Virus record (IMG/VR): IMGVR_UViG_3300042554_001750
Reading direction: 5' to 3' (one strand)
Source of the DNA: a virus
Taxonomy: Duplodnaviria; Caudoviricetes
DNA length: 64,000 bases
Shown: piece after piece, positions 849-20,384 of the stretch
How the letters are laid out: each line of letters begins with the position of its first letter
Position numbering within the stretch: position 1 is the stretch's first letter
Notes under the pieces: model-generated
What the model saw: only the letters and a program-made list of their open reading frames with translations
Told to the model about the DNA's origin: nothing
Databases searched by the model: none
Position numbers and translations under genes: made by a program

Positions 849-1094
849 TCACCATTCTTCATCTTCGTCGTCGTAATCTTCTTCGTATTCTTCTTCTAAT
901 TCATGTTCACTGACATAATCTTTGAGTGCGTTCAAAATTTCTTTTTCACCACGGAAAGATTCTTTGATTTCATCTGCTTCATAATTGTTGTCAATTAAAA
1001 AGCTAACCAATGTGTCAGCGGCATCTTTTCTTTCAGAGATATCAATATGACCTCTTAATGCATCCCATACTTCTGCTACAAAATCTAAACTCAT
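849..1094 (-). CDS. Small very acidic hypothetical protein
   Basis: 81 aa, 29 D/E vs 7 K/R by hand count, acidic tail; packed in operon. Confidence 0.7.
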   Translation of the reverse strand: MSLDFVAEVWDALRGHIDISERKDAADTLVSFLIDNNYEADEIKESFRGEKEILNALKDYVSEHELEEEYEEDYDDEDEEW

Positions 1095-1840
1095 TCTGTA
1101 ATGTTCTCCTCTGTTGATACATTACTTATCTTTGAATTATATTTTTCAACAAACCATCCTTTACATGAACCGCGGGCTGGTATCTTTTTATTTCTCATAA
1201 TCTTTTCCATAGTAGGCACACTTAAATTGTGTAGGTTACAAAAATTATAAAACCCCTCAGCTATATATTCAACTGAATCGGGTGAAATAAATCTATAGGT
1301 TTTTATATTGTTTTTGTTACCCTTCATTCTTTCTGAATGTTTCTTTTTGTTTTCGTCTGTGTGGTGCTTGTTATAAAACCCGTTCTTCTCACCTGTGACA
1401 CCTAACCCAATTTTCTTTTTTGTTTCTGCTGTCATGGGTTTTCTGCCATTTTCTAATAGAGTATTTTTATAACTTTCTATTCTTTTTTCTAAATGAGCAG
1501 GTGCTTGCTTTTTACCTTTATGAGAAGGGGGTCGTTTATCTAAACAAATGTTGGTCAATATACCGCCTTCATCAATATTTTCTCTCCCGTATTTTTTAAT
1601 ATAAGATGCCTCAATCTCATATGCGACATTTTCATCAATAATATTGTCAGTCAAAATACTTATAGGTATCTCGTATCCCTGTTCTCGTAAATATTGAATC
1701 TTAAAGAACTTATGACGATTATCAGTATTGTCAATAGTTTCCTTGAAGTGATCCAAATGTCTTTGATTTTCAGTTTTACCTTTACCTATATAAAAAGGAA
1801 GGTTGGTTCTATTATCTATTAGGGCGTATATGTAATACAT
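1091..1840 (-). CDS. Free-standing GIY-YIG homing endonuclease with NUMOD3-type DNA-binding repeats (start likely second ATG at 1840, not 1852)
   Basis: YIYAL...FYIGKG GIY-YIG motif; GEKNGFYNKHHTDENKKKHS NUMOD3-like motif; GGAG 6 nt before ATG 1840. Confidence 0.85.
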   Translation of the reverse strand: MYYIYALIDNRTNLPFYIGKGKTENQRHLDHFKETIDNTDNRHKFFKIQYLREQGYEIPISILTDNIIDENVAYEIEASYIKKYGRENIDEGGILTNICLDKRPPSHKGKKQAPAHLEKRIESYKNTLLENGRKPMTAETKKKIGLGVTGEKNGFYNKHHTDENKKKHSERMKGNKNNIKTYRFISPDSVEYIAEGFYNFCNLHNLSVPTMEKIMRNKKIPARGSCKGWFVEKYNSKISNVSTEENITE

Positions 1841-1877
1841 AGCAGTCTCCATAATATTATTTATGCTAACTGCTATG
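1838..1877 (-). promoter_or_regulatory. Translation-blocking hairpin over the endonuclease start codon with late-promoter motif in its loop
   Basis: Minus strand CATAGCAGT...ACTGCTATG 9-bp stem; ATAAATA (1858-1864) in loop. Confidence 0.75.
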
Positions 1878-1887
1878 AATCCATATT

Positions 1888-2943
1888 TTATTCTTCATCA
1901 GGAGATTCCATCGGAGTTTCTTTGGGTGAAAGCATGATATCTTTCATTACAATATTCAGACAATTATCGTCATTTCGCTCCCAGCCTTTGCGAAACTTTT
2001 TTATGATTTCTCCGTCTTTTGTGGTATATACCAGACTATTACCTTCTTTTGAGAGTAATCCTTTTCCTTCAATCAAATCTGTAAGACCTGAAAACGGACT
2101 CATACCTTGGTCGTACGGGATCTTAACTTGAACACTTTCAAATGGTTTTGCGTAGCGAGTTTTCATAACCTTACAAGCACTACGAATACCTCTAACTTCA
2201 CTTACCTTGTTGCCATCTTCATCTTCTTTAAGTTTGAGTTTACGCATAGCAACAACAATACTTGAAGCATAGATAAAGCCTTGACCACCTGAAATCTTAT
2301 CATCAGGATCAAACATATCTTGTGAAGCATATGTGTGATTAGTCGCAACCAATCCTACATTGTGACTGCCAAACATATTAACACAGTTGCGAACAAGTGC
2401 CGTCAATGCCTTAGGCTTACGACCCATGTCACCCTTCATGTCACCTGCTTCAAACTGATTAACATCAGTAGGTGTCAGTAGCATACCTAGACTGTCAATG
2501 ATGAAAAGAACTTTAGGCTTATCATCAGCAGGCAGTGCCTTGTAGTTCTTCATAAACTCTGAAATAGTCTTGGCAACATCATCAATCATTGCCATGTTGA
2601 GTTTCAATAGTTTATCTTCACTGGTATCTACACCGAGTGCTTTCAGCCAATCTTCATCCAAGGCATTTTCTGAGTCAACCAAGACAACAAAGATGCCTTG
2701 TTGTTGTGCGTGTCTGACGAGGTTGCCTGAACAGATGTATGACTTTCCTGATCCTGACTCTCCGGCAAAGACAGTAACTTTACCAAGAGGTACGCCTTTA
2801 TTAAAGTCACCACTAATGAGGTAATTGAGAGCATAATTTCCTGTACTCACCCAATCTGTCGGGTCATTGAAACCAATGCTCAAGCCCTCAATAGACTTGG
2901 TGATATCCTTTCTAAATTTACTTACGTCAAATGGCTTTCCCAT
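1888..2943 (-). CDS. uvsX: RecA/UvsX-family recombinase
   Basis: Walker A GESGSGKS, VDSE, IIDSL Walker B, TNH and ISGG motifs of RecA family. Confidence 0.95.
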   Translation of the reverse strand: MGKPFDVSKFRKDITKSIEGLSIGFNDPTDWVSTGNYALNYLISGDFNKGVPLGKVTVFAGESGSGKSYICSGNLVRHAQQQGIFVVLVDSENALDEDWLKALGVDTSEDKLLKLNMAMIDDVAKTISEFMKNYKALPADDKPKVLFIIDSLGMLLTPTDVNQFEAGDMKGDMGRKPKALTALVRNCVNMFGSHNVGLVATNHTYASQDMFDPDDKISGGQGFIYASSIVVAMRKLKLKEDEDGNKVSEVRGIRSACKVMKTRYAKPFESVQVKIPYDQGMSPFSGLTDLIEGKGLLSKEGNSLVYTTKDGEIIKKFRKGWERNDDNCLNIVMKDIMLSPKETPMESPDEE

Positions 2944-9104: not shown

Positions 9105-9130
9105 AATACTCACAATATGTGAGTATTTAT
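9105..9130 (-). promoter_or_regulatory. Late-promoter motif overlapping a 10-bp hairpin
   Basis: ATAAATACTC (9121-9130); AATACTCACA-TAT-TGTGAGTATT (9105-9127). Confidence 0.6.
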
Positions 9131-13747: not shown

Positions 13748-15772
13748 TCATACTCTTTTTAGTAAAGCCTTTAGTTCTTGTAATTCATCTGGATCGTTTT
13801 CTGTGACTACAGCTTGTGCATCAGTATTAATGAAATTTTCATTAGCACCAACTAACTTGCCCATTGCACCTTTTGGTCCTACCTTTTCGTATGGGCCTAA
13901 TTGACCTACACGCTTTTGGTTGGCGTCTAAATCCTCTTCCACATCAAGTTTACTTTTAATGTCACGCTTCATTGCATCACTATCTTGTTTGTGAAGTTTA
14001 CCTAATTTAGTTATTCTATTAGGTGACATGTTTTTACGCATTTGTCTAAACTCTAAGTCATCGTGACCCATTGAATGACCAGGTCTTGGGAAATGCATAC
14101 TAGGACCGTTAACAATGCTATCGGCAGTGCTGTCACCAAACTCTGCACGAATTTGTGCAATAATATCGTCAGAGTCCTCGTCACCCATATACTCAGGATC
14201 AGTTGCATCACTATATGCATCAATTAGGTCTTTAAGTCTTGCTTTTTTTTCTGAATCTAACCCTTCCGCCACACTTACTTCATCTAACTTGTCATACTTG
14301 GCACGGATCTTTGCCATTTTTTCTTTGCTAGCACCATCTCTACCTGCTTGACGCAATGCGTCCATACCTTCTTTACCATACTTCTTGTTACCAAGATATG
14401 CTTGTAGACCGCTTTCTTCAACTTCTTGTTCATCAATTTGATCTAAGCGTTTTGTCAATGCGGCTAAACCTTCTTTACCGCTGATGTTACGCTCTTTAGC
14501 TTTTTCTAAATCTTTTGTAGTTGTCTTCCAGTCAGGATCGCCACTTTGCTTACGCATAAATGCAGGCATTTGAGTTTTCTTGTGTGCAACTTCTGCATCG
14601 TCAGCTTCGTCTAAATCAAATGCATCTAATCTAGATTTTTCAGTTGCCTGATTGTGTGCTAATGTTTCTGCACCTGCAGCTTCATCTAATGGATTATCTT
14701 CTGCACCACCTTCGCCTGCGTCACCTGCTGTATAAACATCAGTTTCTTCGCTGGCTTCACCACCGTCGCCGCCTTCTAGCAAGTTATCTGCCCATTCTGC
14801 CAACTCACTAACTTCCTTCATCTCACCTAAGTTCTTACTTAGTTTGCTAAGAATTGGCATCACACTTTCAATTCTTGGATCTAGTGTTTCTTGTACGAAT
14901 AATTCGTTTAAATTAGATTCATCATTTTCAGTCTCCATTAATGTAGGAGTCCAGCTTTCAAAATATGCGTTGTATCCACGACTGCCGCGCATCTTGCTCA
15001 ATGACTCACGCAAACTTTGATAGTGACCAAGACCTGCTTCAACTAATTTCTGAGCACTTTCATTGAACTGATTGCCGCGAACAGCACGGACAAAGCCTGC
15101 CATCTTACTATATTCTTCACAAAGGCTCTTGATATGATTCCAACGCTCATCGTTTGGTATTCCGCCTTCTGCCAAATGTCTAGCATAAACTTGTGCGATT
15201 CCTGGACGAGTAGTTGGGGCTAATATTCTTTCACCTTGACTATTCTCTAAAAAGATTTTAGCAATATTTCTAAATCTTTGTTCGCCTTCTTGTATTTGGC
15301 GTGTGTGCTGTAGTACAATTTTAACAGTAGGAATTGCATCATTGTAGCTAGCACTTTTACCCATTGGGTAGTATCCCTCAGAAATTTTTTCTTTTTGCTT
15401 CATATATTCCCTCTTAGACATATCATCAGATAAGCGGTCTTGGTTAATTGTTTGAAATCCTAATTGACGGCGTTGCGCCCATTTTTTCAATTGTATTAAA
15501 AAATCCATGAAACTTTTAGGATTCATGTCATCTTCTTTTAATGTGTTTAGTAACTTGTTATCGTAATATACTTTTAATTGTTGATTACCATCAACTGTCA
15601 CCCATGCAGGTCCGATTTCTTTACCATCTTGTTTGTAGGTAAATTTAATCACATCTGCATCATCACTAACTGGAATCGTCTCTCCCTTACTATTTTTTGG
15701 AACAGGATCAAATCCTTGAACTTTCAGTAGGTCGTATAGACGGTTGTTTAAAGAATTATTGCTAATTGGCAT
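13748..15772 (-). CDS. Large hypothetical protein next to terminase, acidic low-complexity C-terminal half; possible head/core protein
   Basis: 674 aa ORF preceded by ATAAATA at 15780-15786. Confidence 0.6.
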   Translation of the reverse strand: MPISNNSLNNRLYDLLKVQGFDPVPKNSKGETIPVSDDADVIKFTYKQDGKEIGPAWVTVDGNQQLKVYYDNKLLNTLKEDDMNPKSFMDFLIQLKKWAQRRQLGFQTINQDRLSDDMSKREYMKQKEKISEGYYPMGKSASYNDAIPTVKIVLQHTRQIQEGEQRFRNIAKIFLENSQGERILAPTTRPGIAQVYARHLAEGGIPNDERWNHIKSLCEEYSKMAGFVRAVRGNQFNESAQKLVEAGLGHYQSLRESLSKMRGSRGYNAYFESWTPTLMETENDESNLNELFVQETLDPRIESVMPILSKLSKNLGEMKEVSELAEWADNLLEGGDGGEASEETDVYTAGDAGEGGAEDNPLDEAAGAETLAHNQATEKSRLDAFDLDEADDAEVAHKKTQMPAFMRKQSGDPDWKTTTKDLEKAKERNISGKEGLAALTKRLDQIDEQEVEESGLQAYLGNKKYGKEGMDALRQAGRDGASKEKMAKIRAKYDKLDEVSVAEGLDSEKKARLKDLIDAYSDATDPEYMGDEDSDDIIAQIRAEFGDSTADSIVNGPSMHFPRPGHSMGHDDLEFRQMRKNMSPNRITKLGKLHKQDSDAMKRDIKSKLDVEEDLDANQKRVGQLGPYEKVGPKGAMGKLVGANENFINTDAQAVVTENDPDELQELKALLKRV

Positions 15773-15785
15773 AGTATTGTATTTA

Positions 15786-16844
15786 TCAACTAATTACGGC
15801 AAAGAAGGGCAGAGGAGCAATGATTTCATCATGATCCTTGATTTGTGCTTCTAAATTATAATGATAATCACTCAATTGCTGTAAAATTCTGACTACAAGA
15901 AGTGCGGCCATGACCAAATCGTCGGTATCCCCGATTTTAGCTGCATAGCTGCCACCATTAGCTATAAAGCTTTTAAGTTCACTAATCAATGATTTACTAT
16001 GAACCTTCATTTTTTTGCTTTCTAGCAATGTTTTAAATTTAGCACATGCAGCTAGTTTTACCTTTTGTGTAGTATTGAAACCTTTGCGCTTTTTACCGGG
16101 CTCGGACAAAAAGATGCCAGGAATGTTACTTTCACCGTATTCATTCAATGAAATTAGTGCGGCTTCACCTATACTATTATTTTCTATACTGTAATAAAGA
16201 CTGTTAGGTTCATTAGTGCATTCTACAATATATTTGTTGATATCTGCTATAAGTTTGATTTGACTAGGAATGTCAGTTTTATTATGCTTCCATTCTCCTA
16301 TTTGCGTAGTAGTATTTGCTTCAAATATTTGTATAGCTGATGGATCACCGCCGGTGCCCAAGCTTGGATCTAGCCCTACAACATATATATTACCTTTCTC
16401 GGGTTTCTTATACCATCGGATTTGACCCATTCTATGAATAGGCTCTACACCTTCTAATTGAATTAAAGTATTAGGATTGATTAATGTTTCATCTGCAATA
16501 ATAAATTCGCAATTGGAACATAGTATCCCGTTGGCATAGAATCTTCTATTAGTTCCAACATTCACAAGGTCATATACTATTTCAATAGCATTTTCCTTTA
16601 CTGATAATACCTTTTGCAAACCAGTTACTGTTCTGACCTGAATTCCTGGTGTAAGCTGTTCTGCTTTTAATTTTGTAAAAGAATCTGTAAATACCTCATG
16701 ATCAGGAGTCAGAGTTAATTGAGTATTTTCTAAATTTACTATTATAGTATGCATAGCTCCTTTGTTAACAAGACCTTCAAATGTCTGCCAACCGGTATCC
16801 GTCAACACTTCTAAACCTAATTTATTTTTTAGTAATTCTACCAT
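15786..16844 (-). CDS. terL: Terminase large subunit C-terminal (nuclease) fragment fused behind the C-terminal part of a split intein
   Basis: After residue 111: CEFIIADETLI, VGLDPSLGTGGD, IENN, DDLVMA gp17 nuclease motifs. Confidence 0.9.
   Translation of the reverse strand: MVELLKNKLGLEVLTDTGWQTFEGLVNKGAMHTIIVNLENTQLTLTPDHEVFTDSFTKLKAEQLTPGIQVRTVTGLQKVLSVKENAIEIVYDLVNVGTNRRFYANGILCSNCEFIIADETLINPNTLIQLEGVEPIHRMGQIRWYKKPEKGNIYVVGLDPSLGTGGDPSAIQIFEANTTTQIGEWKHNKTDIPSQIKLIADINKYIVECTNEPNSLYYSIENNSIGEAALISLNEYGESNIPGIFLSEPGKKRKGFNTTQKVKLAACAKFKTLLESKKMKVHSKSLISELKSFIANGGSYAAKIGDTDDLVMAALLVVRILQQLSDYHYNLEAQIKDHDEIIAPLPFFAVIS
16512..16844 (-). mobile_element. Split intein C-fragment (IntC, 111 aa)
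   Basis: Block B TPDH, block F VYDL, block G ILCSN followed by +1 Cys (CEFI). Confidence 0.9.
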
Positions 16845-17496
16845 ATACGAACCCCTCAGGTTGAGATCCTTCCCTAAATTGACGATTTTCTACTCCATTA
16901 TTAAACCACTTCAATCCTTTTCTTGATTGGTTGGTTATCAATCGTCCTGCGTTAAATCCAGCCGGTATAGTATCCCCATAAAATTCATTGACCCCATTGT
17001 TATACCATTTTTTACCCAGGTTTATGCCTACTCTGCCCTTTTGAGCAACGCTTATATTCTTACACCTAATAGGATCTTTTAAATAATTATAGTAGTTTGG
17101 GTTGAATCTTGCTTTGCGCTGAGATTCTCTCTCGTCATCTGACCATAATGTTCCTTTATTACGGCCACCGTGACCAGGTAATCTTAACCCCTTATTCCAC
17201 GGAATACTATTTGTAGTTCCTTCTCCGCCGTCAGTTCTATTTCTTAATATACCCGTACCTAAATCTTTTCTACCGTATAACTGTATCATTTGGCATTCTA
17301 ATGAAATAGCTTCTACTTCCGTAAGTCCCTGTTCTAATATAACAATGTTTTTATATAAAGGTCGTTTAATATTTTCATGTAATTGCCAGGCACGTTTATT
17401 TTTGCCTTTGCCAATGTAATAAGGTGTTCCATTTTCCCTCAGATATGCATAAACATAATATCCGTCAGGAATTTTGTGCGGTGAATAAATAGTCAT
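16822..17496 (-). CDS. Free-standing GIY-YIG homing endonuclease between the two terminase/intein halves
   Basis: YVYAY...PYYIGKG; two C-terminal W(Y/F)NNG...GF..GR repeats; GAGGAG RBS. Confidence 0.9.
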   Translation of the reverse strand: MTIYSPHKIPDGYYVYAYLRENGTPYYIGKGKNKRAWQLHENIKRPLYKNIVILEQGLTEVEAISLECQMIQLYGRKDLGTGILRNRTDGGEGTTNSIPWNKGLRLPGHGGRNKGTLWSDDERESQRKARFNPNYYNYLKDPIRCKNISVAQKGRVGINLGKKWYNNGVNEFYGDTIPAGFNAGRLITNQSRKGLKWFNNGVENRQFREGSQPEGFVYGRITKK

Positions 17497-17554
17497 GCTG
17501 ATTGCTCCTCTATAGCGTTAGAGTAGTTGGGGATTGCCGTCCCGCGAACTACAC
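17497..17554 (-). promoter_or_regulatory. Late-promoter motif and structured leader of the endonuclease gene
   Basis: ATAAATA 17548-17554 then GTAGTT-CGC-GGGA-CGGCAA-TCCC-C-AACTAC stem-loop. Confidence 0.55.
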
Positions 17555-17556
17555 TT

Positions 17557-17658
17557 TTATTTATCACCATTTAGCATTTTCTCCAATTCTGCCATGGTAG
17601 CAGTAATAATATTACCGGATGAATCTCTAAGAGTCATTCTGGTACTTGGTGCAAAACA
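17557..17658 (-). mobile_element. Split intein N-fragment (IntN, 33 aa)
   Basis: Begins with Cys1 of block A (CFAPSTRMTL) right after REIG; stop after 33 residues. Confidence 0.85.
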
Positions 17659-18480
17659 ACCAATTTCTCGGTTAAATCTATCTTCACCCAACTGGGCTTT
17701 CATTTCATCAGCCCATTTCTGATCACGACCGGGCTGTTCATTCCAATAAGCCCGATATGATTTAAAGCCGTTAATTCCTAGTTCAGTTTCATTTCCATAC
17801 TCATCTAGTGTTTTGTTGGCACCTTTCCAAATCAATGCAAATTGATCTTCATCACTGTTTGGAGTACTTGTAATAATTGCTTTACCACCAGTAGATAAGG
17901 TAGGCGTGATAGAAGTCCAAAATAATTCAGCAATGGAAGGTCTAACGAATGCAAACTCGTCTAAGTATAGCAATGAAATAGACATACCACGACCTGTATT
18001 TTCTGTCGTGGTTGCTGACACGATTCTAGAACCATTCTCAAAATCGAGGGACCCTTTATTATAAGTAGTCACGCCTGCCTTAATATGATCGGGACAGTTT
18101 TCATATGCATAGCGAATACGCTGCATAATTTCCTGTGCGCCGGTGTACTTATGTGCCGCAATAAGAATTGTACTGTCTGGTACAAACATAGCATACCACA
18201 ATAGATATCCAGCTGCACTTGTTGACTTACCACTCTGTCGTGGCATCAATGAAATAGAATATCTATAATTGTGATATGTGTGAATTAACTTTTTTTGATA
18301 ATCCCATGGGTGATACAACATACTGCCCTTAGTAGGATGTTGAATATAAAAGAAGTTATCCATAAAATATAGATAACCGGTATCAGGATCACAACACTTG
18401 ATAAAGTCCTGTAGTTCTTTATCCGTCTTAAAGACAGTTTTGGTGTATGGATCCTTAACTAAGGAAGGTGCGTTACTCAT
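17557..18480 (-). CDS. terL: Terminase large subunit N-terminal (ATPase) fragment ending in the N-part of a split intein
   Basis: Walker A PRQSGKS, Walker B LYLDEFAF, TSTPN; ends REIG|CFAPSTRM... Confidence 0.92.
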   Translation of the reverse strand: MSNAPSLVKDPYTKTVFKTDKELQDFIKCCDPDTGYLYFMDNFFYIQHPTKGSMLYHPWDYQKKLIHTYHNYRYSISLMPRQSGKSTSAAGYLLWYAMFVPDSTILIAAHKYTGAQEIMQRIRYAYENCPDHIKAGVTTYNKGSLDFENGSRIVSATTTENTGRGMSISLLYLDEFAFVRPSIAELFWTSITPTLSTGGKAIITSTPNSDEDQFALIWKGANKTLDEYGNETELGINGFKSYRAYWNEQPGRDQKWADEMKAQLGEDRFNREIGCFAPSTRMTLRDSSGNIITATMAELEKMLNGDK

Positions 18481-18508
18481 AGTGAGTATTTATTTGGGCA
18501 TTAACCTA

Positions 18509-20350
18509 TTAAGTTAATTCTTGCCAACCTAGTTCAGCCAACACATCAGCGTTGTTTGCGGTAGCGGCAATCGCTAATGTAACAACATCACTGACGCCGG
18601 CTAAAGTTCTACCTAACTGAAACTGAAAATAATCCACAGCACTGAGTTGTGCAAGTTCTCTGCTGGCAGCGTAGCCTGACTGAATTTCTATTCCACCTGA
18701 TATAGCAGTAGCCGCTAAGTCAATGTCTACCGTGCCAGTGGGGCTAGTAGAAGCAAAAGTAGCACCAGTCAGTGTTGGATTCTGTAACAATACCCAACGA
18801 TAGTAGTTTACACTAGGACTCAGTACGTCAATCTGTCGGGGAAATACTATACTGTCCAATCTGCTGGAGTTTAATTTAATGCTAACAATAGGATAATAAG
18901 TGTTGGCGTTGGACAGACGTTTTGCTGTAGTACCTGTACCAGCGCTTTGAGTAGTACCAAAACTATTATAACCACCTTCACTAATAACAGTGCTACAAAT
19001 TTGTGTCATTTGACTAGCACCGGCAGTTGCACCCGTGTTAGTAATCTCATAACGAATCGGCAATGTAGCCGTAGTCATATACACTTTGGTATTGCCAGTT
19101 TGATTAGCGTGTTGGAATGTGTGGCATATAATATACTGCCCGTTAATGATAAATCCCACACGTACATTACCTACACCCAACCACTCAACATCAGCGTAAT
19201 AAATCTGTGTGCGATTTGGATATAATGTAATACCTGATGGATTGTTAGCACCACCTGCACCGTTCAATCTATCACCATTCCAAGCATCTTGTCTTACTCT
19301 TTCTTCTACACCAGTAGATGCTGAACGAATGACCATATAGTTATATGTGCCATCGTTTTCAAAGAATACACCATCATTAGCACCAAACAATCCCACACGC
19401 TGGCGTAGATTTGTTTTTGGTGTATTCATACAGAATGTAAGCAATGTTAGTTGGCTCTTACCTGGCTGATAAGGAAATACTTTCATTGTTTCTCTTATCA
19501 CACTATCGTTCACAGATGACCCCACATTGAGTTGAAAACTACTTTGGTTAGCTACATAAACAACATTTGCTATACCATTGATAGCACTACTAAACTGTTG
19601 ATGGTCGTAATAACGACTGTTGGTATCAAATAGTGTATAGGGATTGCTTACACGCAAACGACCAAATGCGTCACTTGTTGCTCCGCTAAATCCTGAAATA
19701 ATAACATTGGCATTACTGTCTAATGTTGCGTTGACATTACCTGACACTACCCAAGGACTAGTACCTTGCTGCACTGTTACATTACCACCAGTGATGTTAG
19801 CGTTGACATTGGGCATCGTGCCTATATTGACATTACCTGTAACACCAACATTACCACTTACTGGTAGAGTATTACCTGTTAGAACAACATTACCTAAACT
19901 TGTTACACCTACATTTCCTGACACACTGGCATTAACATTAGGCATAGTGCCGATATTAACATTACCTGTCACACCGACATTGCCGTCAATAGTAAGACTA
20001 CCGCCACCATCTACTACCGTAACATTACCTGTGATACCCGCAATATTTCCTGTAATACTACTAACTGCTACAGTACCTGTTACTATGGCATTGACATTAC
20101 CACCTGATATAGTAACATTGCTGTTGCCGTCTATACTGACCGGCATCCAAGGAACTGTTAATTCACCACTTGTTCCAATTTGTGAAACATGTGAGTCAAC
20201 ATTCCCAGGAATGTTGACGTTTCCATCAATAACAATATTGCCAGTAAACCCGGTTCTAACATACACATTACCTGAGGCTTCATCTAAGGCTAGTGCCTGG
20301 TTGATGTTTCGTAAGTACCAGGGACTTACATTGCTGGGATTTGGTTCCAT
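18509..20350 (-). CDS. Probable virion structural protein with Gly/Asn/Val beta-repeat N-terminal half
   Basis: Repeated GNV units, GNVGVTGNVNIGTMPNVNA twice; DAFGRLRVSNPYTLFD domain typical of phage virion proteins; late motif 20375-20381. Confidence 0.6.
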   Translation of the reverse strand: MEPNPSNVSPWYLRNINQALALDEASGNVYVRTGFTGNIVIDGNVNIPGNVDSHVSQIGTSGELTVPWMPVSIDGNSNVTISGGNVNAIVTGTVAVSSITGNIAGITGNVTVVDGGGSLTIDGNVGVTGNVNIGTMPNVNASVSGNVGVTSLGNVVLTGNTLPVSGNVGVTGNVNIGTMPNVNANITGGNVTVQQGTSPWVVSGNVNATLDSNANVIISGFSGATSDAFGRLRVSNPYTLFDTNSRYYDHQQFSSAINGIANVVYVANQSSFQLNVGSSVNDSVIRETMKVFPYQPGKSQLTLLTFCMNTPKTNLRQRVGLFGANDGVFFENDGTYNYMVIRSASTGVEERVRQDAWNGDRLNGAGGANNPSGITLYPNRTQIYYADVEWLGVGNVRVGFIINGQYIICHTFQHANQTGNTKVYMTTATLPIRYEITNTGATAGASQMTQICSTVISEGGYNSFGTTQSAGTGTTAKRLSNANTYYPIVSIKLNSSRLDSIVFPRQIDVLSPSVNYYRWVLLQNPTLTGATFASTSPTGTVDIDLAATAISGGIEIQSGYAASRELAQLSAVDYFQFQLGRTLAGVSDVVTLAIAATANNADVLAELGWQELT

Positions 20351-20384
20351 TTAACTCTCACCTTGTTATGAGAGTATTTATCGT

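Follow-up and report, generated by a model that had tools for sequence, protein, structure and literature searches.

A fractured T4-type terminase gene carrying both parts of a split intein and a GIY-YIG-type endonuclease gene in an uncultured jumbo phage

In a 64,000-nt stretch of the IMG/VR record IMGVR_UViG_3300042554_001750 (hereafter the window), the gene for the T4-type large terminase subunit (TerL) at positions 15786-18480 is fractured. Its two halves are encoded by separate open reading frames (ORFs), each of which carries one part of a split intein, and an endonuclease gene lies between them. The best explanation of this arrangement, to which we assign a probability of roughly 0.85, is that the TerL gene was broken by an endonuclease cassette and that the protein is rebuilt by trans-splicing. 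The source phage comes from lake water, and at least 14 contigs, of up to 370 kb and drawn from several samples, carry the identical locus. The nearest cultured relatives of its jumbo-phage TerL clade are the PA5oct-like and Atu_ph07 phages.

The locus consists of three consecutive ORFs on the minus strand. The first (17557..18480, 307 aa) ends in ...FNREIG|CFAPSTRMTLRDSSGNIITATMAELEKMLNGDK and comprises the TerL N-extein with the ATPase domain (residues 1-274, 17659..18480), the 33 codons of the N-terminal intein part (IntN; CFAPST...MLNGDK, 17560..17658) and a stop codon (17557-17559). The third (15786..16844, 352 aa) starts with MVELLKNKLG... and encodes the 111 codons of the C-terminal intein part (IntC, 16512..16844), in which block B is represented by TPDH at residues 46-49, block F by VYDL at 90-93 and block G by a segment ending in CSN111. 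Residues 107-115 read ILCSN|CEFI, after which the nuclease half, a C-extein of 241 aa starting with CEFIIADETL, occupies 15786..16511 including its stop codon. The second ORF (16822..17496, 224 aa) lies between the two TerL halves. Pfam searches identified Terminase_6N in the first ORF (E = 2e-15) and Terminase_6C in the third (E = 5e-6), and the C-extein matched the nuclease domain of T4/RB49 gp17 (E = 6e-13). Further, the TerL profile PHROG 36964 was covered by the first ORF as far as position 638 and by the third from position 626 onwards, and both ORFs are therefore halves of one TerL. These results bear out the original prediction of a fractured T4-type TerL with an atypical 33/111-aa intein split and a separate ORF between the halves.

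The insertion site was located by comparison with 80 IMG/VR loci, which were obtained in a scan with an alignment of the C-terminal half and compared with five parts of the locus by tblastn. In about 60 of them TerL is uninterrupted, N-extein residue 274 directly abutting C-extein residue 1, in frame and without a gap, with N-exteins 88-92% and C-exteins ~80-85% identical to those of the window. Full translation of L003 and of L018, the latter on a 524-kb contig, gave in each case a single 515-residue TerL reading ...AQLGEDRFNREIGCEFIIADETLINPN..., which contains NREIGCEFIIADETLINPN, exactly the junction peptide that had been predicted for the spliced product. Across the insertion point the intein-free protein reads ...NREIG-CEFIIADETL..., and the insertion site is therefore fixed by these uninterrupted alleles from sister phages. 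From the T4 gp17 alignment and the domain limits of gp17, we take the site to be the hinge that joins the ATPase domain to the nuclease domain. An in-frame insertion into a conserved host protein for which intein-free alleles exist, as required of a class 1 intein, is thus present in the window.

Searches against known inteins, which had been proposed as a check of the original prediction, placed both halves in the family of Cat-TerL. IntC matched the PDB inteins VidaL (E = 1.2e-6), CatC (E = 6.8e-6) and Spl DnaX (E = 1.5e-4), and CatC aligned with IntC residues 7-113 with ~31% identity as counted on that alignment. A PDB search with the single IntN of the window and its flank returned only noise; because the 33-aa tail alone is too short as a query, a profile of nine IntN sequences was used, and its best PDB match was CatN (6dsl_A, E = 2e-4), which was covered over its whole length and ended at the same position. 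CatN aligned end to end with the profile, and the intein is therefore broken where those of AceL-TerL, GOS-TerL and Cat-TerL are broken, after helix alpha1. A break after the first helix is split position S2, as described for AceL-TerL and GOS-TerL (PMC13014065). Moreover, three relatives (P0237, 666 aa; P0238, 668 aa; and P0057) carry contiguous mini-inteins of 143-150 aa at the same site, in which an IntN-like part runs in frame into an IntC-like part via a short loop, ...ELEKLLTKDTFVEELVKNKLGL.... It is precisely in this loop that the window has its stop codon, its endonuclease gene and its new start codon. A model of the contiguous intein, of modest confidence (predicted local distance difference test score, pLDDT, 63), showed two strands, a helix at residues 27-35, a low-confidence loop in which the break falls, and a beta-rich body, and its top 50 PDB matches were all inteins, the best being VidaL (E = 3.5e-8, template modelling (TM) scores 0.71/0.75). 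The sequence matches of IntC together with this model indicate the Hedgehog/intein (HINT) fold, and both halves show sequence homology to Cat-TerL, which is distant at ~31% identity.

The residues needed for intein chemistry are strongly conserved. Cys1 was found in 9 of 9 IntN relatives and in the three contiguous relatives, and T46, H49, D92, N111 and C112 (Cys+1) are invariant in 19 IntC sequences of 42-80% identity. The penultimate residue of the intein is Ser110, replaced by Lys in some relatives, in contrast to His in CatC.

The 224-aa product of the middle ORF matched PHROG 314 'homing endonuclease' (E = 1.5e-6). Its AlphaFold model has a pLDDT of 74.5 with a well-predicted N-terminal domain, and the 13 best fold matches in the PDB are GIY-YIG domains throughout, including the UvrC N-domain (probability 1.0, TM score by target 0.54-0.63) and that of a GIY-YIG restriction enzyme; a profile of the ORF also gave a weak PDB match to a 'GIY-YIG domain-containing protein' (E = 0.02). 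Within the N-terminal 95 residues, Y-V-Y...Y-I-G-K-G, Y16, Y27-I-G29, R35, E67 and N86 are kept in 26 relatives. The C-terminal half contains repeated W(Y/F)NNG modules that look like DNA-binding modules, and related proteins carry NUMOD3. The model thus points to a GIY-YIG-type nuclease fold with the conserved Y, Y, R, E and N, as originally predicted for this ORF, and the protein is a putative endonuclease that may act in homing. A second free-standing endonuclease-like gene is located at 1091..1852 on the minus strand, directly downstream of a UvsX-like recombinase gene (1888..2943). Its product also matched PHROG 314 and shares 28% identity with the endonuclease of the TerL locus over residues 13-125, and ATAAATA stands 5 nt before its ATG. 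This pair was considered as a second fractured gene and rejected, since UvsX is complete.

The endonuclease gene begins 60 nt past the IntN stop codon, and its final 23 nt (16822..16844) overlap the start of IntC; the same overlap is found in L001, L054, L075, L077, L086 and L087. An ATAAATA element (17558..17564, minus strand) overlaps the last IntN codon and the stop codon (GAT AAA TAA). This sequence is depleted in the window, with 17 copies against 33 expected, 16 of the 17 being on the coding strand and almost all shortly upstream of gene starts (for example 18487-18493, 15780-15786, 9124-9130, 20375-20381 and 1858-1864). Some copies precede an ATG by 5-8 nt; the others are 24-62 nt upstream, with a hairpin (ctcaca..tgtgag, ctctca..tgagag) after them. 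ATAAATA also occurs at the IntN stop in L001, L086, L087 and L064 and at the endonuclease start in L054 and L075. The element is therefore described here as promoter-like, and it may function as a promoter; if it corresponds to a T4-like late promoter, the spacing of 5-8 nt would imply near-leaderless transcripts. The 60-nt leader of the endonuclease gene (17497..17556) is 91% identical across the window, L001, L086 and L087, whose coding regions are near synonymous saturation. It contains a GTAGTT...AACTAC hairpin (17523-17552) with one compensatory change (GGGA/TCCC to GGAA/TTCC) and a GAGGAG Shine-Dalgarno sequence (17505-17510), and a GAGGGG Shine-Dalgarno sequence for IntC lies within the endonuclease gene (16852-16857), all on the minus strand.

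Comparison of relatives revealed many variants at the same site. Proteins with IntC and the C-terminal half form 109 clusters at 90% identity in metagenomes, and at least 10 of the 80 IMG/VR loci have an intein at the hinge site. The three-gene layout of the window recurs in L001, L086 and L087. The break point is occupied by a GIY-YIG protein with NUMOD3 in L075 (3223-4017), L079 and L077, by an HNH endonuclease with NUMOD3 in L054 (3319-4017), the C-terminal tail of which is 53% identical to residues 101-224 of the window's protein, and by a DUF7487 protein in L008 (2995-4011). Only a C-terminal remnant of the endonuclease is left in L052 (2535-2843), where it is fused in frame to IntN as a 92-aa tail, and no endonuclease was seen in the 135-nt hinge gap of L064. 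Some TerL genes of the clade have extra inteins at the P-loop and Walker B sites (L006, L077 and L088/P0057).

Three further arrangements were noted among the relatives. In L064 (1689-5062, IMGVR_UViG_3300025035_000201), TerL is distributed over four consecutive ORFs of 149, 250, 241 and 353 aa, with intein sites at the P-loop (GK|...N|TTT), Walker B (LLY|C...N|CDE) and the hinge (REHL|C...N|CQP). The intein N-parts at Walker B and the hinge are short (~30-36 aa), and the tail of the first ORF is longer, ~64 aa after the Cys. These ORFs appear to be joined by three split inteins, and one TerL would need three trans-splicing reactions. In L088 (2480-5815, P0057), the fracture is at Walker B, with a 212-aa N-part, a 304-aa ORF without a Pfam match and a 604-aa ORF; the Walker B IntC ends in Gln (HSHQ|CDEF) rather than Asn, and the hinge site has the contiguous mini-intein. 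Finally, the TerL of ~40 Campylobacter phages (CP30A, NCTC12673, PC5 and others; records H25-H50) contains, within a single coding sequence (CDS), a segment ~30% identical to IntC, presumably a contiguous intein at or near the hinge site.

Several observations weigh against the explanation by an invading cassette and trans-splicing, and they bear on different parts of it. For the leader, the folding z-score of -1.6 was not significant against shuffles, and a small CTCTA/TAGAG hairpin over the endonuclease Shine-Dalgarno sequence was not conserved in L001, L086 and L087; translational sequestration is accordingly not claimed. For the middle ORF, no Pfam model, those for GIY-YIG and NUMOD included, matched at E ≤ 1, and the whole-chain Foldseek E value of its fold matches was only ~0.02. 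Proteins encoded at this position in relatives did match NUMOD3, LEM-3 GIY-YIG or HNH models. Conceivably, the ORF has ceased to act as a homing endonuclease at the site and is instead a domesticated gene or a passenger, kept for the expression signals of the downstream half. Such a role would agree with the missing Pfam match, with the decay and loss of the gene in L052 and L064, and with the constraint that dual coding with IntC places on the endonuclease 3' end. Selection was analysed on the window, L001, L086 and L087, which have equal gene lengths. Across these four loci, the proportion of nonsynonymous differences (pN) in IntN, IntC and the endonuclease was 0.09-0.27, compared with 0.47-0.77 for synonymous differences (pS), and the ratio of the corresponding substitution rates (dN/dS) lay at ~0.08-0.25 in the two intein parts and at 0.06-0.11 in the endonuclease, in its nuclease and DNA-binding parts alike, these ratios being rough because dS is near saturation. 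These data indicate that purifying selection is acting on both intein halves and on the endonuclease. Selection on the nuclease part as well as the DNA-binding part argues against a mere passenger, as does the conservation of the catalytic Y, Y, R, E and N. In addition, whole nuclease heads (GIY-YIG, HNH and DUF7487) have been swapped at the same position among relatives, and this exchange suggests ongoing mobility. We therefore regard a domesticated or passenger ORF as unlikely.

A different objection concerns the splicing itself, which we infer from the sequences. The intein halves could serve only as tethers in a non-covalent two-chain motor, splicing having been lost or cleavage side reactions having become dominant. 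This alternative draws on the lack of the penultimate His of block G, since Ser110, or the Lys of some relatives, could slow Asn cyclisation. A penultimate His is, however, no strict requirement of inteins, and many active inteins do without it. Association of the halves was examined by predicting a complex in which 10 extein residues were kept on IntN and 14 on IntC, alongside three controls. The interface score ipSAE was 0.69, compared with 0.00 for the best of the three controls; 58 of 80 solved complexes attained that mark, as did 2 of 110 mismatched pairs. Contacts agreed by at least 85% between runs, the partner pLDDT was at least 77, and the predicted interface takes in IntC blocks B, F and G. 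Because a like complex (6DSL) has been solved, this pass may reflect likeness and not be independent evidence, and the prediction supports association only, not the splicing chemistry. It is also true that a phage gene broken by an endonuclease can yield a working two-chain protein without any intein, as with Aeh1 NrdA (cited in PMC2677866). In contrast, Cys1 and the terminal Asn, which are needed for chemistry alone, are invariant across relatives of 42-80% identity, as are the T and H of block B, and AceL-TerL, GOS-TerL and Cat-TerL, with the same break, splice in vitro (PMC11766414, PMC13014065). A tether without splicing thus seems very unlikely to us.

That TerL is simply broken (in a defective phage or one that uses another TerL), or that the halves are rejoined at the RNA level by an endonuclease-carrying intron, is extremely improbable: an endonuclease within a gene does recall many group I introns and the search for another TerL covered the 64-kb window, but no further TerL-like sequence was found in that window, conserved intein halves are encoded in frame on both sides of the endonuclease gene, all parts are under apparent purifying selection, the identical locus recurs in the many contigs described above, and an intron was rejected since no Rfam family, group I and II introns included, matched within 15000-19000 at E ≤ 1. 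Protein trans-splicing is consequently the reading we consider best.

Based on these results, we propose the following route for the fracture and repair of TerL. A mini-intein would have been inserted in the ATPase/nuclease hinge of a T4-type TerL, and a GIY-YIG homing-endonuclease cassette would then have cut the intein coding sequence after the first helix, at split position S2. Two precursors would be made, N-extein(274)-IntN(33) and IntC(111)-C-extein(241), and docking of IntN on the nearly complete IntC would restore the HINT fold. Class 1 chemistry could follow, with a thioester at Cys1, transfer to Cys+1 and cyclisation of Asn111, and would yield a TerL of 515 aa with ...REIG-CEFI... 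at its junction, the protein that sister phages encode in one piece. The cassette itself seems to bring in the signals through which the break is tolerated, namely ATAAATA with the IntN stop codon and a structured leader with a Shine-Dalgarno sequence for the endonuclease, while a second Shine-Dalgarno sequence and the ATG for IntC would be provided inside the endonuclease 3' end.

More tentatively, and at somewhat less than even odds for the whole of what follows, the endonuclease cassette and the split intein may form one modular mobile unit. The left end of the cassette would be the ATAAATA that supplies the IntN stop, and the right end a constant DNA-binding tail, the last eight codons of which are dual-coded with the IntC start. 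Between these ends the nuclease heads (GIY-YIG, HNH and DUF7487) would be interchangeable, and the target of the cassette in the intein DNA would set the S2 break. If so, the clade would keep all stages of gene breaking, from empty sites through contiguous inteins to split inteins with an endonuclease, with a remnant or without an endonuclease, L064 being the extreme.

The locus implies that an uncultured jumbo phage of ~370 kb most likely needs protein trans-splicing to make its essential packaging motor. It also adds a divergent natural subfamily, with more than 100 clusters, Cys1/Cys+1 and no penultimate His, to the few atypically split inteins available for semisynthesis and labelling. The original prediction had further valued the short IntN for chemical synthesis. 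This did not hold up: at 33 aa, it exceeds those of AceL-TerL (25 aa), VidaL (16 aa) and PolB16 (15 aa) (PMC13014065), and therefore offers no obvious advantage for synthesis. The main value of the subfamily is comparative, as its natural variants could be mined for orthogonal pairs with short IntN. These variants also offer material on how homing endonucleases create split inteins, with alleles in empty, contiguous and split form and with endonucleases of several types at a single position. The known mechanism is unchanged by this locus, and the comparative material in its relatives is the more interesting part.

Fractured genes of this kind were described by Dassa et al. in 2009, including a Lake Gatun locus similar to the myovirus gp17 terminase with an unusual break (PMC2677866). 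They are characterized by free-standing GIY-YIG or Vsr-like endonucleases, a gap of 27-51 nt, a downstream overlap of 6-69 bp, and leader hairpins and late-promoter elements, and in the proposal made there, the stop codon upstream and the start codon downstream both come from the invading endonuclease (PMC2677866). The window resembles their terminase locus (GOS-TerL) in its freshwater, gp17-like myovirus terminase, in the one-strand order of N-half/IntN, gap, endonuclease and IntC/C-half, in the unusual break that leaves a long IntC lacking only motif N1, in the overlap of the endonuclease 3' end with the downstream gene, and perhaps also in the late-promoter-like element and hairpin that precede the endonuclease (PMC2677866). 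Its 23-nt overlap is within the published range, whereas its gap of 60 nt is longer than published. Compared by its published description, GOS-TerL differs in having Ser1, a 37-aa IntN and a 115-122-aa IntC (PMC11766414, PMC2677866), as opposed to Cys1 and 33/111 aa in the window.

Similarity to AceL-TerL and Cat-TerL (PDB 6DSL) extends to the host protein, the extein context E-x-x|C...N|CE, the S2 break and the Cys1/Cys+1 class 1 type. The extein residues in 6DSL (EFE before residue 1 and CE after the last) fit E-I-G|C-E-F of the window, although only 2-3 residues are comparable, and the equivalence of the insertion sites that had been predicted is thereby upheld. In contrast to these inteins, that of the window shares only ~31% identity with CatC, has Ser instead of His at the penultimate position and an IntN of 33 rather than 25-30 aa, and belongs to a jumbo-phage TerL clade. 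The reported sizes are 25/104 aa for AceL-TerL, 37/115 aa for GOS-TerL (Ser1) and 30/104 aa for the consensus Cat-TerL, all of them characterised and applied in semisynthesis (PMC11766414, PMC13014065), and with 33/111 aa the window lies inside the published range of S2-split TerL inteins (IntN 25-37 aa, IntC 104-122 aa; PMC11766414, PMC13014065, PMC2677866). VidaL (PDB 6VGV), which is likewise atypically split and Cys-dependent, was the best match both of IntC in sequence and of the contiguous-relative model in structure, but its split is at S1, following strand beta2, and its IntN has 16 aa (PMC13014065), whereas the intein of the window is split at S2.

Among cultured phages, only distant relatives of the intein were found, with 30-32% identity. 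One of them is the unrecognised fractured TerL of the T4-like Yersinia phage MHG19 (OQ331036.1; L081, 132577-137936), whose record labels the parts only as 'terminase large subunit' (two CDSs) and 'hypothetical protein'. As in the window, its two TerL CDSs are separated by an overlapping ORF of GIY-YIG type, here SegE-like; its IntN has 37 aa (C...ISS) and its IntC ends in THN|CAEFHGTSGTLISG. It differs in that its IntC is only ~31% identical and, in the T4 gp17 alignment, its intein is inserted one residue further upstream than that of the window. The claim of a new natural member in the original prediction therefore stands for the intein itself, which is divergent and new, and overstated the novelty of its kind, a gp17-like fractured terminase with this break having been published in 2009 (PMC2677866). 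Taken together, these sequence comparisons indicate that the intein of the window is of the known fractured, S2-split TerL kind, and that it is itself a new and divergent member of a subfamily that is common in metagenomes.

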